Assembly (NCBI GenBank): GCA_046861385.1
Contig: JBHHTW010000041.1
Span: 1 to 16,744, forward strand
Length of the DNA: 16,744 nucleotides
From: Fidelibacterota bacterium
GTDB taxonomy: Bacteria > Fidelibacterota > Marinisomatia > Marinisomatales > TCS55
Direction: 5' to 3'
Shown: positions 948-16,744 of the stretch, in pieces
How positions within the stretch are numbered: position 1 is the stretch's first letter
Layout of the letters: every line of letters starts with the position of its first letter
Program-made: the position numbers and the translations under genes
The notes under the pieces: model-generated
The model's database searches: none
What the model was told of the DNA's origin: nothing
Seen by the model: only the letters and a program-made list of their open reading frames with translations

Positions 948-3622
948 ATCAATTTTTTAACAAAATTATAAAAGGGGCTTCCCTTAGAAAGCTTCTCTCT
1001 GTCGGGGGAGGGATTTTTACATTAATTCTCATTTTTACCTTTGGTTACACCAGTTATCGTGTGGGTAGAGATACATTAATATATTCTGTACTGGACACTT
1101 TTACCAAAGATTCGCAACTGGCACAAACCCAAATACAGGGTTTTCTTTCTCACCAATACCAAGCTCTGAAGGTGATAGAAAAAACGCCCCCAATTCCTGC
1201 AATATTCCGAGCCATTCAGAATGGAGGCGTTGATCCGGCCTCCCAGGATGACTTAACCACCTGGCGGCGGCGCCTTGAGCAAATTATGATCAGTACCATT
1301 GACGCAGACCTGGATCATAGTTTACAACAACTCAGGCTTTTGGATCGACATGGCCGGGAATTGGTTCGTGTTCATGCCACGGAAAAATCACCAAAAGGTG
1401 TACCCGAAGACGATTTGCAGGATAAAAGCGGTCGGTCCTATTTTCAAAAAACCATCCAATTGGCTCCGAATGAATACTTCGTATCTCCGATTAATCTCAA
1501 CCGGGAATATGGGAAAATAATGGAACCCATCCAGCCCACCATCCGGGTATCGATTCCACTATTTAATGACGAGGAAGAATTAGAGGGTGTACTGGTTTCA
1601 AACATTAATCCAAAATCCATATTTAACCAGCTGATATTACATGAAAAAATCTTCGAATCTGTTTTTCTGGTTAATCAGGACGGCTATTTTCTCATTCATC
1701 CAGATCCGGATAAAACGTTCGGGTTTGACAGGGGATTTGAATATACTTTGAAAAATGAGCATCCGGATTTAGCAAAAATACTGAATGTTAATGATGAATA
1801 TATTAATCCGTCCTCTTTTCATGGACATAAACTTTCCCATTTTGACGGTTTTATTCATATCCATTATAACCCCTCTGATCCAGATAAATTTTGGGCATTT
1901 GTGTTTGAAATTCCTACTGAAACAGTGCTGGGATCGATTAATCAATTACGCTTTAACTTAATTATTCTGGCTGTATTTTTTGTGGTCATATTTTCATTCA
2001 TCAGTTATCAGGTCAGTTCCCGTCTTATCACCAAACCAGTGAAGAGCTTATGTGGTGCCACTCAGAGTGTTGCCAGCGGTCATTATCAACCGGAAGATAT
2101 ACCTTCCGGTGGCCATGTTCTGGAATTTGAACAGTTGTCCAGTTCCATCAAAAATATGATTGATGAAATCCAACAATCTCAAAAAGCTCTAAAGGAATCG
2201 GAAGAAAAATTCAGGGTATTGTATGAAATGGCGGGAGATACCATTATCATTGCCAAACCGCCTGAAGGAAACATTACGGATACCAACGAAGCGGCGAGTA
2301 GGTTGTTAGGGTACTCCCAGGAAGAATTTAAACACATGACTGGTTTTGACATCATTGCTCCCGATTATATAGAAAGAACAGATAAAATTTGGCAGAAACA
2401 AATGGAGGAAAAAGGGCATTTTCTCCTGGAAACACAATGGATTCGGAAAGACGGACATCAAATTCCTGTGGCTGTGGCCGGTACCCCGGTAACTATACAG
2501 GCAATTAATTATATACAATTAATTGCCCGGGATATTTCTGACCGGAAAAAAGCAGAAAAAGAAATCCAACGACTGGCGAATTTCCCTAGAGAAAATCCAC
2601 AGCCGGTTCTGGAGATTAATCATAATGGAGAATTAACATACATAAACCCAGCCGGTAAACAACTTTTAAAAGACCTTGGTAATGGATCCTTGGATAAAAT
2701 CCTTCCACTCAATTTCCGTCAGGGCGTCATTGAAAGCTTTACATCAGGAAAAATGCTTACAAACCAAGCCATTGTTTTAGGTGAAAGAACTTTTCTCTGG
2801 TCTGCCCACTTTATTCCTGACCTGGGCCTTGTCCATCTATATGCGAATGATATTTCTGATTTGAAGAAGACAGAGTTAGATCTGATCCAGGCAAAAAATA
2901 AGGCCGAACAGGCTGATAGGGTCAAAACGCTCTTTCTGGCCAACATGTCCCATGAAATTCGTACTCCTTTAAATTCCATTCTCGGATATACTGAACTCAT
3001 AGAGCTGGAGACGAGCACATTGCTTGGGGAAGAATATTTATCCTTTTTTCATATTGTTAAAAGTAGTGGCCAACGCCTCATGAACACCGTTCACAAAATT
3101 CTGGATATTTCCCAGGTAGAAGCAGGAACATATGAACTCGCATTAAAACCGATAGATATTCAAAATTTGATTTCTACATTGATCGATGCAATAAAGTTGA
3201 CAGCATCCAACAAACATTTGGATATCCACTGGAATCATCTCTCAAAACCAGCCATGGTTATCGTAGACGAATCATCCATTTCCCAAGCAGTGACCAATTT
3301 ATTGGATAATGCCATCAAATATACCAATGAAGGGGAAATCGAAGTAACCCTCAGTGAACAAAACAACCAATTTCAATTGGTCATACGGGATACAGGTATC
3401 GGTATTTCTCCTGAATACCTGGAGCATATGTATGATATATTTTCCCAGGAAAGTTCCGGTTATACAAAAAAATATCAGGGGATTGGTCTTGGGTTAGCTC
3501 TGGCCAAACGCTTTTTGGATTTAAATAAAGTTAGAATTGATGTAGTCAGCAAAAAAGGTTCCGGAACCACTTTTACCTTGTTATTTACAAAAGCTTCAAC
3601 TAAAATTCAAGACATGGGTTAA
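944..3622 (+). CDS. Membrane sensor histidine kinase (TM-Cache-TM-HAMP-PAS-PAS-HisKA-HATPase)
   Basis: Two hydrophobic segments flank a Cache-like region (DKSGRSYFQKT, YFVSPINLNRE, FLVNQDGYFLIHPD). A HAMP follows (ITKPVKSL...EFEQLSSSIKNM), then PAS domains (RKDG...ARDISDRK; LANFPRENPQPVL). H-box FLANMSHEIRTPL, N-box NLLDNAIKYT, G1 DTGIGI and G2 GIGLGL are present. Confidence 0.93.
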   Translation: MNQFFNKIIKGASLRKLLSVGGGIFTLILIFTFGYTSYRVGRDTLIYSVLDTFTKDSQLAQTQIQGFLSHQYQALKVIEKTPPIPAIFRAIQNGGVDPASQDDLTTWRRRLEQIMISTIDADLDHSLQQLRLLDRHGRELVRVHATEKSPKGVPEDDLQDKSGRSYFQKTIQLAPNEYFVSPINLNREYGKIMEPIQPTIRVSIPLFNDEEELEGVLVSNINPKSIFNQLILHEKIFESVFLVNQDGYFLIHPDPDKTFGFDRGFEYTLKNEHPDLAKILNVNDEYINPSSFHGHKLSHFDGFIHIHYNPSDPDKFWAFVFEIPTETVLGSINQLRFNLIILAVFFVVIFSFISYQVSSRLITKPVKSLCGATQSVASGHYQPEDIPSGGHVLEFEQLSSSIKNMIDEIQQSQKALKESEEKFRVLYEMAGDTIIIAKPPEGNITDTNEAASRLLGYSQEEFKHMTGFDIIAPDYIERTDKIWQKQMEEKGHFLLETQWIRKDGHQIPVAVAGTPVTIQAINYIQLIARDISDRKKAEKEIQRLANFPRENPQPVLEINHNGELTYINPAGKQLLKDLGNGSLDKILPLNFRQGVIESFTSGKMLTNQAIVLGERTFLWSAHFIPDLGLVHLYANDISDLKKTELDLIQAKNKAEQADRVKTLFLANMSHEIRTPLNSILGYTELIELETSTLLGEEYLSFFHIVKSSGQRLMNTVHKILDISQVEAGTYELALKPIDIQNLISTLIDAIKLTASNKHLDIHWNHLSKPAMVIVDESSISQAVTNLLDNAIKYTNEGEIEVTLSEQNNQFQLVIRDTGIGISPEYLEHMYDIFSQESSGYTKKYQGIGLGLALAKRFLDLNKVRIDVVSKKGSGTTFTLLFTKASTKIQDMG

Positions 3623-3629
3623 AAGAATC

Positions 3630-4013
3630 ATGACAGAATCAAATTCAAAAAAGAAAAATATTCTCGTGGTAGAAGATGATCTGAATTCACAACTGCTCGT
3701 TAAGTTTTTCCTCAGGGATACTTATGAGTTTTGTTTTGCCGATTCAGTGGCGACTGCCAAAGATTGTTTAGAAAAAAACCCTGTTGAATTAATTCTATTG
3801 GACCTTTCACTGGTGGGAAATGAAGATGGACTGGATTTGGTGAGATGGATGCGAACCAGTGAAAAGTGGAAAAAGACTCCAGTCATTGCCACGACGGCCC
3901 ACGCCTTTACGACTGACCGGGACAATTGTATGAATGCCGGATGTGACGATTATCTACCAAAACCCATTACGAGAGCCGCTTTGCAGGAAAGAGTCGCCCA
4001 TTACCTTTCCTGA
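3630..4013 (+). CDS. Single-domain response regulator (DivK/CheY-like receiver)
   Basis: Motifs VVEDD, phosphoacceptor LILLDLSL, ATTAHA and YLPKPI. It starts 7 nt after the kinase stop and has no output domain. Confidence 0.93.
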   Translation: MTESNSKKKNILVVEDDLNSQLLVKFFLRDTYEFCFADSVATAKDCLEKNPVELILLDLSLVGNEDGLDLVRWMRTSEKWKKTPVIATTAHAFTTDRDNCMNAGCDDYLPKPITRAALQERVAHYLS

Positions 4014-4159: not shown

Positions 4160-5407
4160 TTAATTAACCTGTACCGTTAGGATTTTTAACCCCCCTAACC
4201 CACTGGCCACAAACATAACATCGTGTTTATAATGGATATGATTAACCGATTGAAAATCTCCAAACCGAAAATGTCCTAATAATCTTAAATTATCAACATC
4301 ACAGTCTTTCGAATCAAACTTGGTGTCGGAAATACCAACATATACTCCTGCTTCACCATTGGCCATGAAAAGCAGTCGCTTATCAATGGATGCTGCATTG
4401 GTCACCGTAACTGAAGCGTCTAAGTCAGATACCATGGGTTGGGGAATGGAATCAATCACCGTACCGGTTTGAATGCAAACAATTTGAGTACCTCCGTCTC
4501 CTAGAGCCAGAATAGCCTTCTTCTTTTTAATTTCAATAGTAGATTTTGAAAATTCTATATTGGCCCCTGTCAATGTCCAATCGTTTGTTAACGATCCGCT
4601 ATCCCGATCAAATATCAGCAATCTTGCCGGTGTACCAGCGACAACACCAACATCATCACCGTCACCATCTACGCTACGGGCATCTTCCACTGCAATGGAA
4701 TCGTGTTTGGTGAATGTGTCCTTATCCAGAATATTCACATACCCTCCCAAGGCACCGGAGGTCACATAAATCCAGTCTTTTTCAACCGTTACATCTGTGG
4801 CTGCAAAACTGGGCAAATCCATTGTTTCAGTTGTATTTGTTAATAAATCATCATTGTCTAATGTGACTTTTTCCAGGACAGCCGGAGTAGAGAATTCAGT
4901 CCGGTCCGTTGCACCAGCGAGGTATAAATATCCACTTTTTTCTTTGATACCATTAATATCTGTATCAATAAAAATAGCGCTGGATAGCAGGGAAGGTTGG
5001 TCAATATTTGAAACATCAAATATATCAACAGCCCCCAAGAATGTTTCTCCCTGGACATTGTAGCTCACATATGCTTTATTATCTTTTATTCTGACATCAG
5101 TTGCCTGAAGTATAACACCATCGTATTCAGGAGGGGATACTTCAGCTACCAGCGTCAATACAACCGTATCTGCATACGATAAGGACTTTCTCTTAAAATT
5201 TCCTGTTCCGACCGTATCAATTGGAATAATTTCCTGGCTATATTGAATTCTGGCTGACAGCGCATCTGAATTATTTTCAATAATGATCCGTTTCTGCTTT
5301 GTAGTTAAATCTTCGCAAGCCATAAAATGAACAAGAAGTGAGAAAATAATTGTGTTAAAACACACCGTGAAAATTTGTTTATTTCTTTGACTACATTTAA
5401 TATGCAT
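4160..5407 (-). CDS. Putative lipoprotein with LVIVD-like beta-propeller repeats
   Basis: The ORF track gives 4160..5443. ATG 5407 yields a basic then hydrophobic signal ending in a lipobox-like FMA-C (Cys codon 5317-5315). Repeated blades: YVSYN...GAVDIFDVSNIDQP, ILALGDGGTQIV, FMANGEAGVYV, FVASGLGGLKIL. Confidence 0.7.
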   Translation of the reverse strand: MHIKCSQRNKQIFTVCFNTIIFSLLVHFMACEDLTTKQKRIIIENNSDALSARIQYSQEIIPIDTVGTGNFKRKSLSYADTVVLTLVAEVSPPEYDGVILQATDVRIKDNKAYVSYNVQGETFLGAVDIFDVSNIDQPSLLSSAIFIDTDINGIKEKSGYLYLAGATDRTEFSTPAVLEKVTLDNDDLLTNTTETMDLPSFAATDVTVEKDWIYVTSGALGGYVNILDKDTFTKHDSIAVEDARSVDGDGDDVGVVAGTPARLLIFDRDSGSLTNDWTLTGANIEFSKSTIEIKKKKAILALGDGGTQIVCIQTGTVIDSIPQPMVSDLDASVTVTNAASIDKRLLFMANGEAGVYVGISDTKFDSKDCDVDNLRLLGHFRFGDFQSVNHIHYKHDVMFVASGLGGLKILTVQVN

Positions 5408-5529
5408 GAATGATGATAGATATTTATCAAATAAATTGATCATGGTATTTCCAAATTAGTTTAAATAGTGTTTTTTTGAGATGGGGACACTAACGAAATT
5501 ATTGAAAGTATCTCGTGATTAAAATCACT

Positions 5530-7380
5530 TTACCACCTATAGATCATTCCAATCATTATTCCCAATCTGACCGGTAACTGTCCCTCTGCATTATAAGACA
5601 CTGTTCCGGTTAAACCCAAGTCAGAATTAAAAAATTTCTGATAGGAACCAGTAAAAAATATGACAGATCTGCTATCGATTAAAGGTCCTGATCCAACCAA
5701 AGCAATGGTATTCCCAAACCCCAACCGTGTTTCGAGAAAATCATCCACAACCCCCAAGTATCTCCTGATCATAAATGTTTGTGTGAAGCCCTGCGATTTT
5801 AATCCACTGAAAATAACTGTTTTTTCATAGCCAAACCAATCTCCCTCATATTTTGCCAAAGAAATGCCCCAAAAGTGGATTCCATTTCCTGGAAAATCCA
5901 TAAATCGATAACTCCCGGAAAATTCCCACCCAAGACCAAACCCCTGAAATATTTCCAAGTTCATATCTCTCCCAGGCAGAATATCAGGATGAAAGGCAGA
6001 TTGAAAACGCAAGTAAACATAGGAACGGGGCCAGGAATCTATATAGCCTTCAAATGACAAAGCTTCATCCCATAGATCAAATCGATTGGCTTTCGTCAAG
6101 TTCATCACCAGGGAACCTCGGGACATTTCCCGTTTAACCCCGGTGGAAAGTTGATGCCAGTTAGAACGATTATTACCAACATATTGAAAATCATATTGAC
6201 TTCGCATTTCCCACTGAGTTGCGGAAACGACACGATTTAATATTCTTAGCTTTTTATTAATCACTTTTTTTCCCACACCCAGTTTTCCGGCTTTTATCAG
6301 ACTCTCTCTGGCCAATGGGTACAGCCTTGCCTCACGATAAACTTCGGACAGTCCTAAATAGGGATCGGGATTATCAGAGGCAATCTCAATCCATTCCATA
6401 TAAACATCGATAGCTTTAGCAGTCATTCCTTGCCATCGATATAATTTCCCCAACATGGACCGAGCGTCATTATATTGAGGATAGTGTAATGTCACATATT
6501 TAATATCTCTTTCAGCTCTTTTGTAATCTTTCATCCAAGTCAGGGTTCGTCCTCTTTCCAACCGTGCATCTGCATCGGTAGAGTCGGCCAAAATCAATCT
6601 CGTATAAAGGGAAATTGCATTTTCATACTCACCCAATCGAGAGTAAGATTGAGCGCATTTAAAAAGGGCAGAATAGTTGGTAGAATCATGCTCAATAATT
6701 TTCAGGTATAGGGTTAGTGCCGAGTCAAAGAGTGACTGTGAAAATTTTGCATTTGCTTCCGTCAGGAGTTTTTGTGCTTTTTCAGCTTCATTTTTTTCAA
6801 TTTTTTTCTGGATAAATACGGTCAGTGGATCAATGATGTCATCTTTCCCACCCAAACGCCTGGCTGTTTCCAGATCACTTCTGGCTAGGTGTAACTCATT
6901 GGAACTTAAATGGGCTTTGGACAGGCTAATATATAATTCAGGATTATCAGGTATGAGCGTAATGCAAGTGGATAAAGTAGTCACTGCTTTTTCTGGATTA
7001 TTCCACCACAAATAGAGGTGACCTAACGCCGACCAGGCATCCCCATAATCGGGGCGCTGTTGGATAACTGCAAGAAAATCCCCTTCTGCTTCTTCATATT
7101 GACGATTCCATGCGTAGACCCTCCCTCGTGCAAGCAATACATCCAAATCATCCGGGGTTTCAATAATTAGCTGATTATACACGTCCAGAGCTTGCCCATA
7201 TTGCTTGTTGTTTGCCAGTTCCTGGGCTTGAAGGATTCGCGCGCTATATGGCAGTTTTTTATCAGTCAGGGTAGGTTTACTCTGTTTGGAAGTAGATGTA
7301 TCTGGAGAAAATAATTCTAATGAATAACCAGATTGGATAGATAATAAACTTATACCAAAAATATAAAATGCAAATCTCAT
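5530..7380 (-). CDS. TPR-repeat plus YaiO-family outer-membrane beta-barrel protein (putative polysaccharide export porin)
   Basis: The likely start is ATG 7380, with an ATGA overlap with the GT2 stop and AGGAAG upstream, giving the signal peptide MRFAFYIFGISLLSIQSGYS. About 330 aa of TPRs follow. The C-terminal ~230 aa have alternating amphipathic strands (GWEFSGSYRFMDF, WGISLAKYEGDW) and end in IGMIYRW, an aromatic barrel C-terminus. Confidence 0.85.
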   Translation of the reverse strand: MRFAFYIFGISLLSIQSGYSLELFSPDTSTSKQSKPTLTDKKLPYSARILQAQELANNKQYGQALDVYNQLIIETPDDLDVLLARGRVYAWNRQYEEAEGDFLAVIQQRPDYGDAWSALGHLYLWWNNPEKAVTTLSTCITLIPDNPELYISLSKAHLSSNELHLARSDLETARRLGGKDDIIDPLTVFIQKKIEKNEAEKAQKLLTEANAKFSQSLFDSALTLYLKIIEHDSTNYSALFKCAQSYSRLGEYENAISLYTRLILADSTDADARLERGRTLTWMKDYKRAERDIKYVTLHYPQYNDARSMLGKLYRWQGMTAKAIDVYMEWIEIASDNPDPYLGLSEVYREARLYPLARESLIKAGKLGVGKKVINKKLRILNRVVSATQWEMRSQYDFQYVGNNRSNWHQLSTGVKREMSRGSLVMNLTKANRFDLWDEALSFEGYIDSWPRSYVYLRFQSAFHPDILPGRDMNLEIFQGFGLGWEFSGSYRFMDFPGNGIHFWGISLAKYEGDWFGYEKTVIFSGLKSQGFTQTFMIRRYLGVVDDFLETRLGFGNTIALVGSGPLIDSRSVIFFTGSYQKFFNSDLGLTGTVSYNAEGQLPVRLGIMIGMIYRW

Positions 7381-8798
7381 CCATCTTCCTGTATTTGAAA
7401 GCCTTTTCGTTCCATTTTTCCCCATCCTTTACTTCCGCGAAAATAAGAATACACGCCGTGAATACGCCAGTAAATTGATAGCTGACGATAACCGACATTT
7501 TCAGCAATAGCCATCAGAAAGAGTCCGAGTAAATCGCGGAATCTCGGATAGCGTCTAAAAGTCAATTCCTCCAATCCAATTGATACAATGGATAGTGCAA
7601 TTCCAAACACCATTGCTGCCATGAAAAACGCTAAAATATATGTTCCTGAAACTCGACCTAGCGCAAGGGCCAATATAAATGATATGTAGCCAGGAAATTC
7701 AATGATGGGACCCAACATTTCAAAAATGTAGAAATATGGATAAGCAAAAAGTCCAATCCGTTTGTAACGGGGATTAAACAGCATAATTTTATGACGATTA
7801 ATCACTTCCATTAACCCCCGCTGCCACCTATCTCGTTGACGACCAAGTATTTTTAAACTTTCAGGGCATTCAGTCCAAGCCACCGGATCTGGGACAAATG
7901 TTATTTTATAGGGTGTTTTTTTCTGAAGGCAATGACGATGAAGTTTCACAATGAGTTCCATATCTTCACCCACAGTATCGGTTGAATATCCCCCCGCTTC
8001 TACCACAGTCGCCCGCTTGAAAATCCCAAAAGCACCTGATATTATCAGAGTCGATTGAATGGCCTCCCAACCCATGCGACCAGCTAAAAACGCGCGTAAA
8101 TACTCCAGAACCTGAATTTTAGCCAGAATATTTTTTGGTAATCGAATATCCACAATGACTCCATCTTTGATGGTGCACCCATTGACGATACGAATTATAC
8201 CGCCAGTAGCTACAGTACTGTCATTTTCCAGAAAAGGACGAACCACCCTCACCAGCGCATCTCGTTCTAATAAAGTATCGGCATCCATGGCACAGAATAA
8301 TGGCGTTCGACAAAAACGAATACCGGTATTTAATGCATCCGATTTACCACCGTTTTCTTTATCAATTACCCAAATATTGGGATATCTCCGACTGTTATAT
8401 ATTTCCTTCACTGGGGCAGCCTTAATGTCAGCAGTCGGCATCCTTGGCGTTGGTATTAAATCAAATTCATCAATTAGCCGCTGTATCGTATTATCAGATG
8501 ATCCATCATTTACCACCAGAATTTCATATTCAGGATAATTCAAGGTCAAGAATGATTTTATGGCTTCAACACAGGTGGCTTCCTCGTTGTATGCAGGAGC
8601 AATAAGTGTAATTGGAGGTGAACCTGCTGATGTTACTAAATCTTCTATATTTAAGGATTTCATTCTTCGGGCGTAACGTCGCAAGGAAAAGAATGCCAGG
8701 ATACTCATGGACAAATATCCAATATTTAAGAATACAAAATAAAAAATTACAATTGTATTGAAGGAATCCAGGATCAATTGAAAAAAATAATATATCAT
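7377..8798 (-). CDS. Processive family-2 glycosyltransferase (PgaC/IcaA/BcsA-like polysaccharide synthase)
   Basis: An N-terminal TM is followed by APAYNEE, VNDGSSD, NGGKSDALN, the DxD motif MDADT, the catalytic-base motif GEDMEL and QRDRW (QxxRW, 7838-7824), then C-terminal TM helices. There is no PilZ extension. Confidence 0.93.
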   Translation of the reverse strand: MIYYFFQLILDSFNTIVIFYFVFLNIGYLSMSILAFFSLRRYARRMKSLNIEDLVTSAGSPPITLIAPAYNEEATCVEAIKSFLTLNYPEYEILVVNDGSSDNTIQRLIDEFDLIPTPRMPTADIKAAPVKEIYNSRRYPNIWVIDKENGGKSDALNTGIRFCRTPLFCAMDADTLLERDALVRVVRPFLENDSTVATGGIIRIVNGCTIKDGVIVDIRLPKNILAKIQVLEYLRAFLAGRMGWEAIQSTLIISGAFGIFKRATVVEAGGYSTDTVGEDMELIVKLHRHCLQKKTPYKITFVPDPVAWTECPESLKILGRQRDRWQRGLMEVINRHKIMLFNPRYKRIGLFAYPYFYIFEMLGPIIEFPGYISFILALALGRVSGTYILAFFMAAMVFGIALSIVSIGLEELTFRRYPRFRDLLGLFLMAIAENVGYRQLSIYWRIHGVYSYFRGSKGWGKMERKGFQIQEDG

Positions 8799-9871
8799 CG
8801 TCTGTTTTCCGCTAATACCTGTTGCGCGAGGTTTGCACGTGGATGGTTTGAATGGGCGATTTCATGTAAAAACGTCTGACCCCCTGCTGACATGAGTCCC
8901 TCTACTGCTTGGATGGCCACCCAGGGAATCGGGTCATCTAATCCGGGTTTGATGAGTTCCAAATCATTTTCCTCGCCAATAACACCCAACGCTTTTAAGG
9001 CGCAGGCCCGTACCACAAAATCCGGACTAGTAATTAGATTTCGAATTGCGGGCAAATGTTTTTCCTGTCCTACTTGGGCCAATAGTTTCAGCGATGCAGC
9101 CAGTAAGTCGCGATCTGATTCCTTTGTAATAACATCAGCTGCAATATCAGCCGAAAGAAGATCATTGAGGTTACGAAGAGCTTGTGCAGCAGTGGCACGA
9201 CTAATAGGAGTAGCTTTAGAATCAGAAAAGGTTTTACGGAAAGCCGGGGTTCCGTTAGGCCCGATGGATTTTAACAGAGATGTTAAAAAGTTTTTGCTCC
9301 AGTTTTCAAAACGATGAAGATGGCTCATGATATGGGGCGCGTATTCAGGAGAATCCTGACTTGCCAATGCGCGTATAGCAACCATGGCAACCAAAGGAGA
9401 TGGATCATCTAAACTTGCCACGATTTGCTTATCGTACTCTTTCAACCCCAAAGAACTCAAAGTTAACACCGCCCGAGCCCGCCGTTCGATATCATTTTCA
9501 TGGAGACGGTCAGCAATGGGTTTTAAAAATGGTTTTGCTAATTTTATTAAATGATTCTGCTCCATCCCCTTCAAACGCTGGGAAAATCGCAAGAGAAAAT
9601 CAATAAAATACAATGACTCATTTTTTCCCACCTCTTCCCATAGAGCTTCATGTGTCTCCTCTTCTGATAGAATCATCAGTAAATGCTCTTCCCATTTTTG
9701 TTCCAACCCCTGCCAAATTTTCGATTTTCTATCGTTTGATATTCGAAGATAAATGGTGGCAATTGCGAAGAAAATAGCCATGATAAAAAATATACAGATA
9801 AATACAATTAATAGAGTCAGTATTCCCTCATGCAACAAGCTATCAGCCATAGGAAAGGAAGGAAGTTTCAA
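8795..9871 (-). CDS. Single-pass membrane protein with HEAT/PBS-lyase-like repeats
   Basis: One N-terminal TM (ILTLLIVFICIFFIMAIFFAIATIYL) is followed by basic residues. Repeats: ERRARAVLTLSSLG, LDDPSPLVAMVAIRALA, SPDFVVRACALKALGVIG, LDDPIPWVAIQAVEGL. TTG start with AAGGAA upstream (ATG 9850 is an alternative). The stop overlaps the GT2 start (ATGA). Confidence 0.88.
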   Translation of the reverse strand: MKLPSFPMADSLLHEGILTLLIVFICIFFIMAIFFAIATIYLRISNDRKSKIWQGLEQKWEEHLLMILSEEETHEALWEEVGKNESLYFIDFLLRFSQRLKGMEQNHLIKLAKPFLKPIADRLHENDIERRARAVLTLSSLGLKEYDKQIVASLDDPSPLVAMVAIRALASQDSPEYAPHIMSHLHRFENWSKNFLTSLLKSIGPNGTPAFRKTFSDSKATPISRATAAQALRNLNDLLSADIAADVITKESDRDLLAASLKLLAQVGQEKHLPAIRNLITSPDFVVRACALKALGVIGEENDLELIKPGLDDPIPWVAIQAVEGLMSAGGQTFLHEIAHSNHPRANLAQQVLAENRR

Positions 9872-9874
9872 TGA

Positions 9875-10234
9875 TTATTCCTTCAATAATGCTTGTACAG
9901 TATTTGCAAATATGGTTGGATCAAATGGTTTTTCTATGATCCCTTTTGCTCCTGAAGATTTTAGTTTGTTTAATGTGTCTGAATCCGATTTACCGGTTAA
10001 ATAAATAAATGGAACAGGTGGAGAAACGGTCTCTTTGATCTGATTCATGAGAGATAATCCATCCATATCAGGCATCAAGTAATCCACGAGGATAGCATCA
10101 GGTACAGATGTCTGAAGCAGTTTGATCGCTTCCAGTCCGCTGGCTGCCTTAATCACTTCAAATCCCGCCTCCATGAGAGAAAAAGAAATGATGAAGCGCA
10201 TATCCTCTTCGTCATCAATGATGAGTATTTTCAT
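9875..10234 (-). CDS. Single-domain response regulator (CheY-like receiver)
   Basis: Motifs IIDDEED, ILVDYLMPDMDG, YLTGK and IEKPFD. It overlaps the 3' end of the DGC by 20 nt. Confidence 0.93.
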   Translation of the reverse strand: MKILIIDDEEDMRFIISFSLMEAGFEVIKAASGLEAIKLLQTSVPDAILVDYLMPDMDGLSLMNQIKETVSPPVPFIYLTGKSDSDTLNKLKSSGAKGIIEKPFDPTIFANTVQALLKE

Positions 10235-11792
10235 AATTCCTGATTAATCGCCTGACTCGTGCCAATAATTCATTAGGAGAAAATGGTTTAATAATATAAT
10301 CGTCTGCCCCCAATTCCAGGGCTCGAATCGTATCCTGTTCTTTGCCCATTCCCGTCAACATAACAATGGGGATATTTGCATAATCTGGGAGTTGGCGTAA
10401 ATGACTTAATAAGTCCAAGCCGTCCATTCCGGGCATTTTCACATCCAAAATCACAACAGTGGCAGATTCATTCTGAGCAGCTTTGAACGCATTCGCACCA
10501 TTATTAAAGTGCTTCACTTTAAACCCCTGGCGACCGAGACGATGTTTGACCACGGCAGCAACAATTTCGTCATCCTCAGCAAACAATATGGTTTTTTCTA
10601 TCTTAAGGTCTCCGGAGTCGGACATACACACCTTTGCTTTTCCCGTACTTTTTGCAATATACAGAAATCGATCTGCTTCTGCTATGACGTCTTCGACCTT
10701 TCCATCAACAGGGACCTTGGCAATTCCGGCGGAAAATGTAATAGAAAATTTGGTTCCATTGGGTGAAATAAATACTTCTTTTTTCAATTCTTCCAATGCT
10801 TTTTCCAATGCTTTGGCACCTCCTGTCAAATCTGTATTTGGCATCAGCACAACAAATTCTTCCCCACCCCAGCGGGCCAAAAAATCTGATTTACGCAATG
10901 CGCTGGAAATAATGGCAGACATTCGACGAAGGACTTCATCCCCCATCGCATGGCCGTGGACATCGTTTACTGATTTGAAATTATCAATATCCAGTATTGC
11001 AGCTAAGAGAGGCTCATCCTGTCGCATCGCATAAGAATGGGCACGCTTAAAGTTTTCAGAAAAGGCGGCTCGATTGGGTAGTTTAGTTAACCAATCCTGG
11101 CGTGCTGCTTTTAACAATTGTTTTGATCTCTGGATATTGGAAGCCACTGCAGCTGAAAACGAATCCGGATCGAACGGTTTCTCAAAAAAGCCGTTAGCAC
11201 CTAAGGCATAACATTCCGCTTTGGTTGTTGGATGATTTTTCCCCGATAAAACCACAACAGGTATGCCAGCTGTATCGGGGTTTTCCCTCATATGCATCAA
11301 AAAACTTCTTCCATCTCCGTCAGGTAAAATTAAATCCAAAACCACCAGTGACGGCAGGGTGGTTTTGAGATGTTCTTTTGCAGCCTTCAACGTACCTGCT
11401 GTAATAATTTCCCGAGTGGGATCGGCCAATTTAATTGATAGTAAATGGATAATATCCGGATCATCGTCAATAATAAGAATGATGGCTGTTTTCTGGCCCT
11501 CTTTTGGAGCAACTGTTTGTTGAAGTATTGCTAACAGAGGGTCCAAAGTAGAAAGTATACTTTTTTCATCCGCTTCTTCAACTAACTCGGCTTTCTCAGA
11601 AATTTCAGGAAACCCAAACGTGCCCCCAGAACCCTTAATAGAATGGGCAATCCTGCGAATGGTATCTACAGCATCCTGTTTGCTTCCTTCATCTAAAAGA
11701 GAATTTTTCGCCGCGTTTAATGCATCAATACGCGCTACAAGACTTTCTCTGTACCAATCTTCTAATTCACTCATGAAATATGGTTTTCTCAC
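10215..11792 (-). CDS. Diguanylate cyclase response regulator, Hpt-REC-GGDEF-REC
   Basis: Hpt RRIAHSIKGSGGTFGF. REC1 IIDDD / VVLDLILPDGDG / EKPF. GGDEF DWLTKLPNR, DIDNFKSVNDVHGHAMGDEVL, RKSDFLARWGGEEF. REC2 FAEDD / VILDVKMPGMDG / IKPF. The start may be ATG 11774 rather than GTG 11792. Confidence 0.93.
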   Translation of the reverse strand: MRKPYFMSELEDWYRESLVARIDALNAAKNSLLDEGSKQDAVDTIRRIAHSIKGSGGTFGFPEISEKAELVEEADEKSILSTLDPLLAILQQTVAPKEGQKTAIILIIDDDPDIIHLLSIKLADPTREIITAGTLKAAKEHLKTTLPSLVVLDLILPDGDGRSFLMHMRENPDTAGIPVVVLSGKNHPTTKAECYALGANGFFEKPFDPDSFSAAVASNIQRSKQLLKAARQDWLTKLPNRAAFSENFKRAHSYAMRQDEPLLAAILDIDNFKSVNDVHGHAMGDEVLRRMSAIISSALRKSDFLARWGGEEFVVLMPNTDLTGGAKALEKALEELKKEVFISPNGTKFSITFSAGIAKVPVDGKVEDVIAEADRFLYIAKSTGKAKVCMSDSGDLKIEKTILFAEDDEIVAAVVKHRLGRQGFKVKHFNNGANAFKAAQNESATVVILDVKMPGMDGLDLLSHLRQLPDYANIPIVMLTGMGKEQDTIRALELGADDYIIKPFSPNELLARVRRLIRNYENTHH

Positions 11793-11816
11793 ATATTGTT
11801 AAATCAAGCATGGCCA

Positions 11817-14800
11817 TCATGAAGTTTCCTTTTTATTTATAATACAACGCATCAAGGCCCACATCAATGATTTTCGATGTACGGGTTGGTCAACAAATTC
11901 GTTTGCACCTGACAGTAACTTGCTAAGTTCTGTTGCTTTTGAGCTAACAATAATAATGGGGACACTTTGTGTCGTTTTTTCTTCCTTCAATTCCGCAATT
12001 TGTTTCTGTGTAATTGAAATTTCGTGTGCAGCTAATATAATTATTTGGGGTTTTACCTTTTTTATCACGCTCTTCCTCAGGGATTGACCGGATGATACTT
12101 TACATTCCAAAGAAAGCAATAATTCCTTTAAAAGTGCCCGTGAATCAGATTGAGAATCAATAATGTAGGTAATTGTCCCTTTTATTTTTTTGATTATTTC
12201 GTCCTGCGAATTGTTTTTTTCTCTTGGGATTTTTCTTTGTTTCCGCATTGGAGAAATCAAGGAGGAATCTTCTCCGTTACCTTGAATGACTATAGTAAAT
12301 GTACTTCCCTTGGCTTCCTCACTGTGCACTGTTAAGTCGTACCCCATCATTTTACACATTGACTTGGATATAGCGAGTCCTAAACCAGTCCCTTGGTATT
12401 TCCGGTTGGATTCGGATTCAACCTGTTGGAACGTGTCAAAAATAGTGCTTTGTTTATCTACAGGAATACCAATCCCAGTGTCTGTAACTCGTATTTTACT
12501 AACAGTATGGTTATCAGTTTCGGTTTCTACAGCGACGGTGACACGACCTTCATCTGTAAATTTTATAGCATTTCCCACCAAATTGATTAATACTTGTTTG
12601 AGTTTTCCAGCATCGGTCATCAATGGGCTAAGTTTCTCAGGAATCTCTTTAAGTATTTGGATATTAGTATTAACAACCTGGCCACTTAACTGGGTGATTA
12701 TTTCCGTGACTAATGAATTCAGGTCCACTTCCGTCTTAACCACTTCTGTCCGTCCTGCCTCAATCTTCGATAAATCCAGAATATCATTGATTAATAAAAG
12801 TAGGTGTTTCCCGTTGACGGCAACTCGTTCTAAAAAGGTTTTTGACTTTTTTGATGAAATGTCCTCTCCCCTTTTAAGGAGAATATTTGTAAACCCTATG
12901 ATTGAATTTAATGGAGTACGCAGTTCGTGACTCATATTTGCTAAGAATCGACTTTTTGCTTTGGATGCTTCCAGCGCGGCTTGTTGTGATTTTTTTATTT
13001 CCATCTCTATCCGTTTCCGATCAATAATACTCGCGAGAGTATTTGCTACTATCTTTAGAAACTCAACTTCTTGATCCCGGTACTGGTGACCATCATTTAA
13101 ATATAGAACAATAACCCCAACAACTTGGCCATGAGATTTAATGGGTATATTATAATGACCGTGGGGCAAAATACCATCATACTGGTTATCATGACGTTCA
13201 TCGACATGTTGGGCAAATTCAATTTCACCACTCTTGGCAGCTCGACCGCATAGGCAATGTCCGAATGCCACATTTGAACAGACGGTTATTAATGATTCAT
13301 GTAATCCAAAATGTACTTTGAGACTCAGTGTGTTCGAACCGTCCTCTACGAGAAAAATGCCCCCTTTCGGCATGGTTGTTATAAACGGGACAGAAATAAT
13401 GATATCCAATGCACGGGATAAGATCTCATCCAGAGAAATTTCTTCAAGGGAAATGGTCAGGAGAGAATTCAAGACATCCTGAAGCTGGTAGCTATGATTT
13501 ATTTCTTGTTGTGTTCTTTTCCGTTCTATTGCCAACGCTACAAAAGACGAAACAAATGTTAATAGACGACGGTCATCTTCACTATACTTAACATTTGGAT
13601 CATATATCTGAATTGCCATAACGCCGATAGTTTTTTCCTCAACAATCAGGGGGGCTCCTAGCCAATTATTTGTTGAAGTACCTCGTGATACGATAGCCCC
13701 TTTTTTCACTAATGAGTTAAAAACCGCCGGAGTGGCCAAAAGGGATTCTCCTGTTTTCAGGACGTAATCAGTCAGACCTTTATTTAATTTCCTGGGGGAT
13801 GGAGGGGAATCAAACTCATCAACAAAATAGGGAAAGTGTATAGTCTCTGTTGATTCATCATACAGAGAAATGTACAGATTCGGTGCAGGCATCATATCGT
13901 TTACAATTTTATGAATAGAGGTATAAAGTTCATCAAGGTTTTTTGTCTTGATGGTTGCCTCAGATAGGTTATGGTTAAAATTCTGGAACTTTTCTGCTTC
14001 TTTTCGGTCGGTAATATCCCGAATGATTATCGTAATCTCATCTTCACTGCTCTTTGTTAACCGAGCTTCAAAACAATGAATTTTTTCATTTACAGGGAAA
14101 TTGTACTCGAATAATTGCAACTTTTCAGATGTCATTGCTTTATTCATATGTTTTAGTGTTTTTTCCGCTAACCATTTTGGAAGAACTGCTTTTATGTGTT
14201 GGTTCATGAAATTTTCGGGTGCGACTAAGAGGTTCTCTTCCTCAACTGCATGATAATCCAAAATGATTCCATCAACACGAATTCGAAACATTAAGTCTGG
14301 TTGGGCATTGAGCAGAGCAGTATTGCGCGCCTCACTGGACTCAAGGGCGTCTAAGGTTGCTTTTCTCTCAGTAATATCCTCTTTAATACCAATAAAATGG
14401 GTGATTTCACCATCCTCGTTTCGAAGGGCTGATATGGATGCAAATTCCCAGAATAACTCTCCATTTTTTTTACGATTGTGAAATTCTCCTGCCCATTCTT
14501 TTCCAGCAGTAATTGTATCCCACAGGTTTTTATATTCACTTGAGGGCGTTTCTCCTGATTTTAATATTCTTGGATTTTTTCCGATAACTTCTTGGGGCTG
14601 GTAGCCCGTCACTTTTACAAATTTTGGATTAACATACTCAATATGTCCTTCTACGTTGGTTATCACTACAGATACGGGACTTTGCTCCATAGCTCTGGAT
14701 AGTTTTCGAATTTCCTCTTTTGCTTTTTTTTCAGCGCTCAAATCTCGAACAATACCAGAAAATATTCGACGATCATTCAGTGTCACTTCGCTAATACCGA

Positions 14801-15329
14801 TGGAAATGGGAATGATTACACCGTCTTTCCTCAGGCCTGACACTTCACGCCCGGTTCCGATAATCCGTTTGATACCTGTTTCCAGGTATGATTGGAGATA
14901 TTGGTCATGCTCATCCGAGTATGGTGAAGGCATCAGTTTATTTATTTTTTGACCAATGATTTCATCACCGGAATAACCAAAAATTGCCTCGGCTGCTGAA
15001 TTGAATGATTTTATTACACCACTTTCCTCGATGGTGATAATACCGTCAATCGTATTTTCAATCACATCAAAGGCACGGAGGCGTTCCTCCATGGCGTTGC
15101 TGCGTATTGGCCGGATAATATATAACCAGAGTAAGGGGGCTAATAATATTGTAAGAAGAGTTGCATCGAGTAGACCAACAAATAAATTTACTTCACTGAC
15201 GATGAAAAACATGATGGATTCCTCAATGATAAATATCAATCCCAGTAAATTGAGAAATAAACGGATAGGGGAATTGAGAAATAATTCAGCGATGTTAGTA
15301 TTTTTTATATTAAAAATTGTTTTAATCAT
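11817..15329 (-). CDS. Multi-sensor hybrid-type histidine kinase (2TM-PAS-PAS-PAS-GAF-GAF-HisKA-HATPase-degenerate REC)
   Basis: Two N-terminal TM helices are followed by three PAS domains (ending VRDLS, KEDIT and IRDIT) and two GAF domains (WLGAPLIVEEKTIGVM; HYNIPIKSHGQVVGVI). H-box FLANMSHELRTPL, NLVGNAIKFT, DTGIGI and GTGLGL are present. The C-terminal receiver-like domain lacks the Asp and Lys. Confidence 0.93.
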   Translation of the reverse strand: MIKTIFNIKNTNIAELFLNSPIRLFLNLLGLIFIIEESIMFFIVSEVNLFVGLLDATLLTILLAPLLWLYIIRPIRSNAMEERLRAFDVIENTIDGIITIEESGVIKSFNSAAEAIFGYSGDEIIGQKINKLMPSPYSDEHDQYLQSYLETGIKRIIGTGREVSGLRKDGVIIPISIGISEVTLNDRRIFSGIVRDLSAEKKAKEEIRKLSRAMEQSPVSVVITNVEGHIEYVNPKFVKVTGYQPQEVIGKNPRILKSGETPSSEYKNLWDTITAGKEWAGEFHNRKKNGELFWEFASISALRNEDGEITHFIGIKEDITERKATLDALESSEARNTALLNAQPDLMFRIRVDGIILDYHAVEEENLLVAPENFMNQHIKAVLPKWLAEKTLKHMNKAMTSEKLQLFEYNFPVNEKIHCFEARLTKSSEDEITIIIRDITDRKEAEKFQNFNHNLSEATIKTKNLDELYTSIHKIVNDMMPAPNLYISLYDESTETIHFPYFVDEFDSPPSPRKLNKGLTDYVLKTGESLLATPAVFNSLVKKGAIVSRGTSTNNWLGAPLIVEEKTIGVMAIQIYDPNVKYSEDDRRLLTFVSSFVALAIERKRTQQEINHSYQLQDVLNSLLTISLEEISLDEILSRALDIIISVPFITTMPKGGIFLVEDGSNTLSLKVHFGLHESLITVCSNVAFGHCLCGRAAKSGEIEFAQHVDERHDNQYDGILPHGHYNIPIKSHGQVVGVIVLYLNDGHQYRDQEVEFLKIVANTLASIIDRKRIEMEIKKSQQAALEASKAKSRFLANMSHELRTPLNSIIGFTNILLKRGEDISSKKSKTFLERVAVNGKHLLLLINDILDLSKIEAGRTEVVKTEVDLNSLVTEIITQLSGQVVNTNIQILKEIPEKLSPLMTDAGKLKQVLINLVGNAIKFTDEGRVTVAVETETDNHTVSKIRVTDTGIGIPVDKQSTIFDTFQQVESESNRKYQGTGLGLAISKSMCKMMGYDLTVHSEEAKGSTFTIVIQGNGEDSSLISPMRKQRKIPREKNNSQDEIIKKIKGTITYIIDSQSDSRALLKELLLSLECKVSSGQSLRKSVIKKVKPQIIILAAHEISITQKQIAELKEEKTTQSVPIIIVSSKATELSKLLSGANEFVDQPVHRKSLMWALMRCIINKKETS

Positions 15330-15696
15330 TTTTATTAAGTTGTTCCTTAATGGCTTGGTACATTAATTCTTCATCCACAATTGGTTTGGTTAAATATCCA
15401 TCAAATCCAATTGCCAAAAACTTTTGACGATCACCTACCATGGCGTGGGCGGTGAGAGCAATGACGGGTAAATGCTTTAGTGTTTTATCTTCGCGGATAA
15501 TTTTTAATATTTCAATACCGTCCATGCCCGGTAGAGAGATATCTAGTAAGACCAGATCCGGAGGACTCATTCGCATACCTTCTAATGCATCAAACCCATT
15601 TTCAAATTTATTTAATTCATACAAATCCTCCAAGAGAACCTCTGCGAGTAACATATTATCTGGATTATCTTCTACTATTGCTATTTTTTTCTTCAT
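15322..15696 (-). CDS. Single-domain response regulator (DivK-like receiver)
   Basis: Motifs IVEDNPDN, VLLDISLPGMDG, IALTAHAM and YLTKPI. It overlaps both neighbouring genes. Confidence 0.93.
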   Translation of the reverse strand: MKKKIAIVEDNPDNMLLAEVLLEDLYELNKFENGFDALEGMRMSPPDLVLLDISLPGMDGIEILKIIREDKTLKHLPVIALTAHAMVGDRQKFLAIGFDGYLTKPIVDEELMYQAIKEQLNKND

Positions 15697-16076
15697 ATGT
15701 ATTCAGACTTTTTATTAATTAGTAGTTTCAGCACTTTCGAACTTTCAGCTATGATTAATTCAATTAATTGATCAAGTGATGGTTTACTTTTCTCTTGAGC
15801 TAATACTTCAATTTCATTTGCGGTTTGCTGAAGCTTTCTGGCTCCCAAGTTCCCAGCGCTGGATTTCAATGAATGTGCTGCCATTTCAAGTGATTTATAA
15901 TCACTGTCCCGGACAGCCTGTTCCATTATGTTAATTTTCTGTGGAATGTTTTCTAAGAAAAGGTTTATCATTTTCACGACCAAAACATTACCACCCATTT
16001 TCTTCAAGCGTGCGATAGCGGTTAGATCAATCGAAGAAATTTTCGCACTTTGATTTTGATGAGAAGTCATAGCCAA
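15693..16076 (-). CDS. Stand-alone Hpt (histidine phosphotransfer) protein
   Basis: AAHSLKSSAGNLGA matches the Hpt His motif in an all-helical protein of about 125 aa. The start is TTG 16076 or, more likely, ATG 16070. Confidence 0.9.
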   Translation of the reverse strand: MAMTSHQNQSAKISSIDLTAIARLKKMGGNVLVVKMINLFLENIPQKINIMEQAVRDSDYKSLEMAAHSLKSSAGNLGARKLQQTANEIEVLAQEKSKPSLDQLIELIIAESSKVLKLLINKKSEYI

Positions 16077-16202
16077 TTGATAATTGTTTTTTGATGCATA
16101 TTTAATCTCGCTATGACGATAACTTAATGTGCTGATTTATTCATTGTTTAATAAAATCCTAAACTATACAAGCTACCTGATTGTACTGCTTTCTCTTTCT
16201 TA

Positions 16203-16355
16203 ATGTCCAGCATTTTATCTGTCTTGAATGTGTTCGATCCAGTTAAAGTAAAAATATATCAAAATAAGGAAGAAATAGGTCAAGCTGAATTAGCCAGGCA
16301 TCTGGGAGTTAGTAGGGCTTGGGTGACGAAAGTACTAAAAAGGGGCAGTGATTAA
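16203..16355 (+). CDS. Small helix-turn-helix protein (50 aa) or HTH gene remnant
   Basis: Manual translation: MSSILSVLNVFDPVKVKIYQNKEEIGQAELARHLGVSRAWVTKVLKRGSD*. QAELARHLGVSRAWVTKVL is a typical HTH. It is shorter than any ORF in the supplied track and has no clear RBS. Confidence 0.55.
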   Translation: MSSILSVLNVFDPVKVKIYQNKEEIGQAELARHLGVSRAWVTKVLKRGSD

Positions 16356-16356
16356 A

Positions 16357-16440
16357 CCGCCCGATATTAGCCCGATCGAGGATCTATTGAACAGTAATCA
16401 TGCCATATCCCTGCTCTGCAATGAGAGCCATCATTGCTCT
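16357..16440 (-). pseudogene. TetR/AcrR-family regulator N-terminal remnant
   Basis: The minus frame reads RAMMALIAEQGYGMITVQ*ILDRANIGR, with an in-frame TAG at 16386-16384. This matches the TetR HTH pattern (LIxExGYxxITVQxIxDRAxIGRxTFY) and is truncated before the xTFY. Confidence 0.7.
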
Positions 16441-16534
16441 GGAGGTCGCCCTGCGTCCCGAAAAACGAGACTTCGGGTGGTAAAGTCCACATACATCTTG
16501 ATAAAATCAGAACGTTGGAGGATAAACCTCTTTA

Positions 16535-16600
16535 ATTTACCCATATAGCAAAAAAGTCTCCCCGCCTTTTGGCGGAAAAACTTTTTTGCTCCGGAGGAGG
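16535..16600. repeat. Copy 2 of a 66-bp imperfect direct repeat (tRNA-Asn 3' end plus terminator; att-like)
   Basis: Matches 16638-16703 at 54 of 66 positions without gaps (manual alignment), including GCTCCGGAGGAGG at 16588-16600, which is the tRNA 3' end. Confidence 0.88.
16548..16589 (-). terminator. Second intrinsic terminator-like hairpin
   Basis: GCAAAAAAGTCTCCCCGCC-TTTT-GGCGGAAAAACTTTTTTGC. The three apparent stem mismatches become G-U pairs on the minus-strand RNA. Confidence 0.65.
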
Positions 16601-16637
16601 CCCTCCTACACTCCGTTTCGGCGGGTAGAGACTCCGT

Positions 16638-16703
16638 ATTTACCCATATAACAAAATAGCTTTTGCGCCAATTGGCGCAAAAGCTATTTTGCTCCGGAGG
16701 AGG
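16638..16703. repeat. Copy 1 of the 66-bp imperfect direct repeat (overlaps the tRNA-Asn 3' end)
   Basis: ATTTACCCATATA, then the hairpin, then TTTTGCTCCGGAGGAGG. Offset 103 bp from copy 2. Confidence 0.88.
16652..16691 (-). terminator. Intrinsic terminator of tRNA-Asn (perfect 40-bp palindrome)
   Basis: CAAAATAGCTTTTGCGCCAA / TTGGCGCAAAAGCTATTTTG lies immediately 3' of the tRNA, with a U-rich 3' arm on the minus strand. Confidence 0.75.
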
Positions 16704-16744
16704 GACTCGAACCCCCGACCTGGTGGTTAACAGCCACTCGCTCT
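16692..16744 (-). tRNA. tRNA-Asn: tRNA-Asn(GTT), 5' part outside the window
   Basis: Reverse complement AGAGCG-AGTGG-CTGTTAA-CCACC-AGGTC-GGGGG-TTCGAGT-CCCTC-CTCCGGA-G. Anticodon GTT is at 16731-16729, the T-loop is TTCGA, the discriminator is G, and CCA is not encoded. Confidence 0.95.

Follow-up and report, generated by a model that had tools for sequence, protein, structure and literature searches.

A probable phosphorelay-switched exopolysaccharide synthesis and export locus with a conserved receiver, HEAT protein and GT2 synthase

What switches an exopolysaccharide synthase when its operon encodes both a phosphorelay and a cyclase for cyclic di-GMP (c-di-GMP)? The question is raised by a nine-gene locus in a 16,744-base stretch of DNA, here called the window, which is the entire contig JBHHTW010000041.1 of a metagenome-assembled genome (MAG) from a Fidelibacterota bacterium (GCA_046861385.1; 2.43 Mb, completeness 97.85%, contamination 0.46%). 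To our knowledge, all well-studied synthase-dependent exopolysaccharide systems (cellulose, poly-N-acetylglucosamine (PNAG), alginate, Pel and NfrB) are gated by c-di-GMP. We read the locus as a polysaccharide synthesis and export machine of the synthase-dependent type that is probably switched after translation by its phosphorelay, with local c-di-GMP as a lineage-specific extra input, and give this reading a probability of roughly 0.6. Across related loci the constant triad is a receiver domain, a HEAT-repeat protein and a glycosyltransferase family 2 (GT2) synthase, and an active cyclase is restricted to some of them. Most likely, the locus is a widespread, apparently undescribed variant of synthase-dependent exopolysaccharide secretion.

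The nine open reading frames (ORFs) run head to tail on the minus strand from 16076 to 4160 and are tightly packed. Their co-orientation and the parts list put forward by the original prediction, which was made from the letters alone, agree with the ORF coordinates and, for all products but the last, with Pfam and NCBIfam matches. Domain calls are Pfam matches at E<=0.01, plus NCBIfam models, from a scan of 13 window proteins. In reading order the genes are:

15693..16076, minus strand: stand-alone Hpt protein, 127 residues, motif AAHSLKSS (Pfam Hpt, 55.3 bits)
15322..15696, minus strand: stand-alone receiver REC1, 124 residues, acceptor aspartate present (Pfam Response_reg, 93 bits; alignment)
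11817..15329, minus strand: membrane-anchored sensor kinase, 1170 residues, with PAS, PAS, GAF, GAF, HisKA, HATPase_c and a pseudo-receiver
10215..11792, minus strand: Hpt-RECa-GGDEF-RECb protein, 525 residues (Pfam GGDEF, PF00990, 138.9 bits)
9875..10234, minus strand: stand-alone receiver REC2, 119 residues, 3 nt before the HEAT gene (Pfam; alignment)
8795..9871, minus strand: HEAT-repeat membrane protein, 358 residues (Pfam HEAT_2, 67.6 bits; alignment)
7377..8798, minus strand: processive-type GT2 synthase, PgaC-like, 473 residues (Pfam, NCBIfam, catalytic motifs)
5530..7425, minus strand: outer-membrane protein with two tetratricopeptide repeat (TPR) blocks and a YaiO barrel (PF19413, 66.3 bits; TIGR04390, 105 bits)
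4160..5443, minus strand: lipoprotein with a seven-bladed beta-propeller, 427 residues (invariant Cys43; AlphaFold2 (AF2) model)

At least 482 relatives of the GT2 synthase occur in species-representative genomes (482 among the 600 pattern matches listed), and the best 80 loci were examined. A HEAT homologue lies directly upstream of GT2 in 78 of the 80; in the other two (L045, L067) the GT2 gene begins at the contig edge. The loci span Marinimicrobia, Gemmatimonadota, Longimicrobiales, Planctomycetota, Lentisphaeria, Omnitrophota, Elusimicrobia and Salinibacter/Salinivenus. The same 80 loci were searched with the window's signalling proteins split into domains. Every locus that holds upstream DNA (75 of 75) encodes a receiver domain immediately before HEAT, and in 70 of these 75 that domain scores 90 bits or higher against RECb, the receiver at the C-terminus of the cyclase protein. 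L032, with 340 nt of upstream DNA, has a REC2-type receiver there, and L066, L071, L073 and L077 have weaker receiver matches before HEAT. REC2 itself is largely a feature of Marinimicrobia-type loci, with a few occurrences elsewhere. In L071, a Gemmatimonadota chromosome, the gene before HEAT (7152-8246) encodes a REC-HD_5 (HD-GYP-like) protein in place of a cyclase or plain receiver.

This neighbourhood bears on the simplest objection, that the signalling and synthase genes are neighbours with no functional link and that the phosphorelay controls some other target, such as global c-di-GMP. A gene for a receiver directly adjoins HEAT in each of the 75 loci, which represent at least seven phyla, and in most cases the reading frames overlap or nearly do so. 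The complete Hpt/REC/kinase/RECb block is found again in Marinimicrobia, Gemmatimonadota, Longimicrobiales, Lentisphaeria and Planctomycetota. We regard an accidental association as very improbable.

The part of the RECb protein that carries the cyclase is far less constant. Among the 70 RECb loci, 17 have an intact GG[DE]EF middle domain, with the RxxD I-site kept in 16 of the 17. In another 30 the middle domain, of about 175 residues, is degenerate (GGSEF, GGAEF, GGGEF, RGDEF or unrecognisable), and three of the 30 keep RxxD. In the last 23 there is no middle domain, so that the I-site is not applicable, and the architecture is Hpt-RECa-RECb, Hpt-RECb or RECb alone; Pfam confirmed such GGDEF-less architectures on 11 sampled proteins. 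Intact cyclases are found in the Marinimicrobia-type loci and in a few others, from Planctomycetota (L081), Lentisphaeria (L029) and Gemmatimonas (L017). The original prediction had the machine controlled by its own cyclase. As conserved logic this does not hold, since 53 of the 70 loci have a degenerate GGDEF or none and the receiver is the constant partner; the comparative evidence across loci therefore moves the regulatory emphasis from the cyclase to the receiver.

The cyclase of the window is itself intact by sequence. Its aligned columns contain GGEEF, the DxD metal site (DIDNFK) and the RxxD I-site (RKSD) at canonical spacing, in keeping with the sequence criteria for an active GGDEF domain. 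The domain also has the Asp of the GHxxGD motif, which marks c-di-GMP-forming rather than Hypr enzymes. The protein resembles PleD-type cyclases in its REC-GGDEF order, GGEEF motif and RxxD I-site, and matches NF007135 at 271 bits; it differs in falling below the 474-bit cut-off of that model and in its extra N-terminal Hpt and C-terminal RECb.

An alternative that keeps the cyclase as the controlling output would have c-di-GMP bind and allosterically activate HEAT-GT2, much as in PgaCD, with the receivers serving only to switch the cyclase on. In its favour, the window has an intact cyclase with its I-site, 17 related loci also have an intact cyclase, 16 of them with RxxD, and the c-di-GMP complement of the genome is small. 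Three GGDEF matches were found, namely that of the window, a GAF-GGDEF protein on contig C29, beside a TPR protein and an extracytoplasmic function (ECF)-type sigma factor, and a PAS-GGDEF protein on contig C6; there is one GAF-HD_5 protein, on contig C89, and neither EAL nor PilZ has a match in the genome, which is 97.85% complete. With no PilZ match, any c-di-GMP receptor must be of a non-PilZ kind, and HEAT, with conserved arginines and tryptophans (R131, R133, W191, R212, R225, R288, W317), would offer a candidate. On the other hand, RECb, HEAT and GT2 stay conserved in the loci where GGDEF has degenerated (30) or is missing (23), only 3 of the 30 degenerate domains keep RxxD, and no HEAT or GT2 residue tracks the intact cyclase. 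Several of the conserved HEAT residues also lie in the predicted interface with GT2, which accounts for their conservation with no need of a ligand. We consider control by the cyclase rather unlikely; that c-di-GMP activates the synthase directly is possible but unsupported.

We favour switching by the phosphorelay. In the scheme that we propose, the PgaC-like GT2 and the single-pass HEAT protein would form the inner-membrane synthase complex, the TPR region and 14-strand YaiO barrel would form the outer-membrane conduit, and the propeller lipoprotein may be a periplasmic or surface accessory. The kinase, with its heme-PAS and flavin adenine dinucleotide (FAD)-PAS domains, would sense O2 or redox state, and its phosphate would pass via REC1 and an Hpt to RECa, RECb and REC2. 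Phosphorylated RECb, REC2 or both would then act on the HEAT-GT2 complex as a post-translational switch. In the lineage of the window, where the RECb protein also contains an intact cyclase, c-di-GMP is probably made beside the synthase and could act on it as a second input. A bolder version, which we offer tentatively, takes HEAT to be a new kind of regulatory subunit whose solenoid would dock phosphorylated RECb or REC2, so that the phosphorelay rather than c-di-GMP would gate synthesis; the Marinimicrobia-type receiver would tether an active cyclase to the synthase, and the O2-sensing heme kinase would drive both the protein switch and a local pulse of c-di-GMP. The sequences and models show the domains, the motifs, the folds, the order of the genes with its conservation, and a predicted HEAT-GT2 interface; from these we infer export of a polymer, the phosphotransfer path, docking of the receivers on HEAT-GT2 and any action of c-di-GMP on the synthase.

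The D, D, D and QxxRW motifs that the original prediction had read in GT2 are invariant in a 22-sequence alignment of the family (D98, D146, D172/D174, E278-D279 and Q321-R-D-R-W325). The family is large, with more than 8000 clusters among the matches listed, and tight, the best 120 of these >8000 matches being 62-100% identical across several phyla. HEAT has one N-terminal transmembrane (TM) helix (about residues 15-43), followed by a predicted cytoplasmic HEAT solenoid. A sequence search of the PDB with HEAT returned designed alphaRep proteins only, and the ESM Atlas unnamed HEAT clusters only.

Modelling of the HEAT-GT2 pair supports HEAT as a predicted synthase subunit. The median ipSAE is 0.69 (runs 0.71, 0.59 and 0.69), against 0.00 for the best of three controls; partner pLDDT is at least 81, and the runs have at least 68% of contacts in common. 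Of 157 solved complexes, 116 attain the mark used for ipSAE, as do 2 of 215 mismatched pairs; these counts apply only roughly here because we used our own alignments. The modelled complex places the HEAT TM helix (15-43) against GT2 TM residues 384-427, and the solenoid contacts GT2 residues 41-61, 117-123 and 189-194. Residues 117-123 fall within a 23-residue insertion that E. coli PgaC does not have. R131, R133, W191, R212, R225, R288 and W317 of HEAT are invariant or near-invariant in the alignment, and R131, R133, W191 and W317 sit in or beside the modelled interface stretches 129, 132-133, 190-195 and 316-317.

The input side of the phosphorelay had been labelled an O2/redox sensor, a reasonable name given the two PAS domains of the kinase. 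PAS1 matches the FixL heme-PAS (1d06) at 98 bits (E 6e-27) and also aligns with DosP; in the alignment (...EHD.YLQ.Y..TG.KRIIG..R.VSG.RKDG) it keeps the histidine of EHD and the arginine of RIIG..R. These we take to be the proximal His and distal Arg of a heme-PAS. By its alignment to 1d06, PAS1 is thus predicted to belong to the FixL/DosP-type heme-PAS O2 sensors. For PAS2 the best alignments are to the PAS domains of MmoS (3ewk) and NifL (2gj3), which bind FAD, and PAS2 has no LOV-type cysteine there. At its C-terminus the kinase carries a receiver-like domain (11820-12224, minus strand) with no Response_reg match at E<=0.01 in Pfam. Assignment as a hybrid histidine kinase with an acceptor Asp in a C-terminal receiver was considered and rejected, as the acceptor column holds Ala and the conserved Lys is replaced by Gln. 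In other loci, relatives of the kinase have one or two receiver domains C-terminal to the core.

A pseudo-receiver without an acceptor means that phosphate must pass to a separate receiver. The likeliest and most economical path would run from the kinase to REC1, then to an Hpt and on to RECa, RECb and REC2; we propose this order. Both Hpt domains keep the HxxK motif. Pfam matched no DNA-binding domain in the five signalling proteins, which bears out the earlier statement that none of these regulators binds DNA.

The export side would start with the TPR-YaiO protein, which exceeds the cut-offs of both YaiO family models (66.3 versus 23.9 bits for PF19413; 105 versus 32 bits for TIGR04390). Its start is likely Met16 (ATG at 7380-7378), which overlaps the GT2 stop codon and opens a plausible signal peptide. 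The AF2 model (pLDDT 84.3, pTM 0.51) has two TPR blocks and 14 beta strands, and E. coli BcsC (9b8a) aligns with it over 567 columns, at rank 47. A YaiO barrel adjoins GT2 in 24 of the 80 loci, in several phyla, so HEAT-GT2-YaiO neighbourhoods do occur elsewhere, as had been expected; examples with the barrel after GT2 are in Planctomycetota (L081), Omnitrophota (L032), a gammaproteobacterial MAG (L051) and Salinivenus (L073).

Two GT2 homologues of 718-720 residues (P0111, P0114) carry a precomputed YaiO domain. A single protein combining an inner-membrane synthase with an outer-membrane barrel is unlikely, and a one-base assembly error at the ATGA overlap could lie behind both. In five loci (L008, L014, L022, L029, L031), a subset of those from Marinimicrobia and Lentisphaeria, GT2 is followed, about 4.4 kb downstream, by genes for a 900-residue DUF5916 protein and for a pair of unnamed products of about 400-450 residues; phmmer found a YaiO barrel only in L008.

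The last gene of the set encodes a lipoprotein whose Cys43 is invariant in the family alignment. Residues 90-427 form a seven-bladed propeller in the AF2 model (pLDDT 88.8), and a VIA fold search aligned 291 residues with WD40-type propellers at Z 31.8 and a root-mean-square deviation of 2.5 Å. The Foldseek and VIA searches returned only generic WD40-like propellers, with no catalytic assignment and no glycanase family prominent, and a sequence search of the PDB gave nothing at E<=1. The earlier label 'LVIVD-like' has to be dropped for a plain description as a lipoprotein with a seven-bladed propeller, because Pfam gives no family at E<=0.01, LVIVD included, and a precomputed PF08309 occurs in 2 of the 120 homologues listed. 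The lipoprotein family is small and unnamed, with 308 matches, mostly from Marinimicrobia, the FCB group and Latescibacterota.

In a reverse test centred on the lipoprotein, 80 metagenome loci (the best of 265 relatives) were examined with a GT2 threshold of E<1e-120. The family GT2 lies in the flank of 24 of the 80, and of 17 of the 31 loci that are 12 kb or longer; six more loci of at least 12 kb have a TPR-YaiO match only, beside the lipoprotein gene. At least three gene orders occur, with the lipoprotein directly after GT2, divergent from REC-HEAT-GT2, or after TPR-YaiO. Since it recurs by GT2 in several orders, the lipoprotein is a genuine accessory, restricted to some lineages.

Some observations weigh against our reading. 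The barrel is missing near GT2 in 56 of the 80 GT2-centred loci, where the downstream genes are unrelated to it (epimerase, Ccm genes, penicillin amidase and kinases, for example), and just 7 of the 80 contain the lipoprotein. Pfam recognised no deacetylase, hydrolase or lyase domain in the operon. The ipSAE of the HEAT-GT2 model is the model's own confidence and no measurement. As regards c-di-GMP as an extra input, neither Pfam nor NCBIfam matched a known c-di-GMP-binding domain (PilZ, MshEN-type or other) in the operon, and a contrast test for HEAT or GT2 columns conserved to at least 90% where the cyclase is intact and to at most 25% elsewhere returned none, with low power and with groups confounded by phylogeny.

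The first of these points would fit a different product. GT2-HEAT might make a glycan that stays in the periplasm or bound to the cell, or else a lipid-linked sugar, and the barrel and lipoprotein would then be unrelated envelope proteins, syntenic only in this phylum. The frequent absence of the barrel, the highly variable downstream genes and the lack of a polymer-modifying enzyme recognised by Pfam in the operon all agree with this. However, GT2 retains features of a processive synthase (QxxRW, ED and a C-terminus with several TM helices), a YaiO barrel follows GT2 in several phyla (L081, L032, L051, L073), the barrel gene overlaps the GT2 stop codon in the window, and the lipoprotein family adjoins GT2 in three or more gene orders. 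A product that is not secreted therefore seems improbable to us, and export of a polymer through the barrel the better explanation of the locus.

How does such a machine relate to those already described? Placement of GT2 rests on pairwise and profile scores. The nearest system is PgaABCD/IcaADBC. The top NCBIfam match of GT2 is the PgaC/IcaA model TIGR03937, and both systems have a small membrane partner encoded beside the synthase and a TPR and barrel protein as exporter, here a predicted one. In the window, however, the partner is a 358-residue HEAT protein encoded upstream, and PgaD has 137 residues and is encoded downstream. The barrel is of the YaiO type with 14 modelled strands, and regulation would come from an operon-encoded phosphorelay. 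Membership in the PgaABCD (PNAG) system was rejected, since TIGR03937 scores 140.1 bits against a cut-off of 422.3, none of the 13 window proteins matches a polysaccharide deacetylase family of the PgaB type in Pfam or NCBIfam, and both PgaA models, matched only in the TPR part, stay under their cut-offs (TIGR03939, 47.6 versus 366.65 bits; PRK10049, 32.2 versus 1043 bits). GT2 is 28% identical to E. coli PgaC over 350 residues.

NfrAB of E. coli likewise pairs a GT2 with a TPR/barrel outer-membrane protein and has a dedicated local cyclase, reportedly DgcJ (a preprint by Junkermeier and Hengge). RefSeq annotates NfrB as a c-di-GMP-activated glycosyltransferase. The window GT2 differs in having no meaningful similarity to NfrB (BLASTP E 0.003 over 51 residues) and no MshEN-like C-terminal domain, its C-terminus ending about 20 residues past the last TM helix. 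NfrA_C has no Pfam match among the window proteins, and assignment to NfrAB was rejected on the pairwise score and the short C-terminus.

In the E. coli yaiO-yaiX-yaiP-yaiS cluster a YaiO-family barrel also adjoins a GT2. E. coli YaiO, in contrast, lacks the TPR part and shows no similarity in BLAST to its counterpart in the window, YaiP is 24% identical to the window GT2 over 262 residues, and HEAT and receiver genes are absent from the cluster. Judged by paper titles, we found no functional study of it. The cellulose system BcsA-BcsB-BcsC shares the overall logic, and the TPR and barrel model aligns with BcsC, but the CelA model TIGR03030 gives 42.6 bits against a cut-off of 699.1, and the window has neither a PilZ domain nor BcsB. 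Membership in Bcs, which would call for a BcsA with PilZ, was rejected on this score and on the lack of any PilZ match in the genome. Scores against NodC (TIGR04242, 42.7 versus 550 bits) and in a PDB sequence search (best matches chondroitin synthase, 34.8 bits, and BcsA, 26 bits) are similarly low. Both the separate standing of GT2, far below the TIGR03937 cut-off, of low identity to PgaC and YaiP and unrelated to NfrB, and the wider claim that the locus is distinct from Bcs, Pga and NfrAB are upheld by these scores and by the different partner genes. We found no study of a HEAT, GT2 and YaiO combination, or of a receiver-controlled synthase of this kind, in the literature searched, which does not extend to subscription journals.

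Among named taxa, the closest relatives of the window's genes are in Marinimicrobia / Neomarinimicrobiota / Fidelibacterota MAGs. Of 201 genomes sampled from the phylum of the window, each at least 80% complete, 42 have GT2 (E<=1e-120), and so do 16 of 84 genera; apart from the source genome, 2 of 24 genomes in the family of the window have it. The GT2 locus thus behaves as a patchy accessory trait. In one genus of the phylum (g55), the GT2 matches in seven genomes each contain one in-frame stop codon (TAA or TGA).

The window holds the fullest version, with the heme/FAD sensor kinase, a four-step relay, an intact cyclase, the extra receiver, the TPR-barrel protein and the propeller lipoprotein. 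The family would extend synthase-dependent secretion by a machine that is widespread, has another kind of partner protein and is switched through a receiver domain. Its carriers include abundant uncultured marine and soil phyla (Marinimicrobia, Gemmatimonadota), whose attachment to particles and formation of aggregates have a bearing on the carbon cycle. By coupling the machine to a predicted O2/redox sensor, the window version suggests that matrix production may be tied to oxygen gradients, an idea open to testing, and cultured carriers make experiments feasible: Salinivenus iranica (L073) has the locus, as does a Salinibacter MAG (L077).

By their ORF coordinates, neighbouring genes overlap by 4, 8, 20 and 4 nt or are spaced by gaps of 24, 3 and 86 nt. 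The GT2/TPR-YaiO overlap measures 49 nt with the listed start of TPR-YaiO and 4 nt (ATGA) with a start at Met16. ATGA-type 4-nt overlaps are thus found at Hpt/REC1, at HEAT/GT2 and, with the Met16 start, at GT2/TPR-YaiO. Further features of the window are:

16343..16362, minus strand: terminator-like hairpin (consensus match only)
16180..16209, minus strand: sigma-70-like promoter candidate, TGGACA, 18 nt, TACAAT (10/12 of the consensus)
first ORF of the convergent set at 516-4013, plus strand: 143 residues, no family match
944-3622, plus strand: dCache-HAMP-PAS histidine kinase of the convergent set
3630-4013, plus strand: stand-alone REC of the convergent set

The hairpin may close the upstream gene (16431-16742) and mark the 5' limit of the operon, as far as a consensus match can indicate. 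The promoter candidate sits in a 260-nt AT-rich gap 5' of the Hpt gene and is weak evidence, as the sigma-70 consensus may not be that of the host phylum. At the far end the nine-gene set is bounded by a convergent gene, part of a second two-component set (516-4013, plus strand). The closest relative, L002, has a REC and a PAS kinase at the same relative position as this set. Hydrothermal-vent metagenome runs contain DNA of the window and may be its source.

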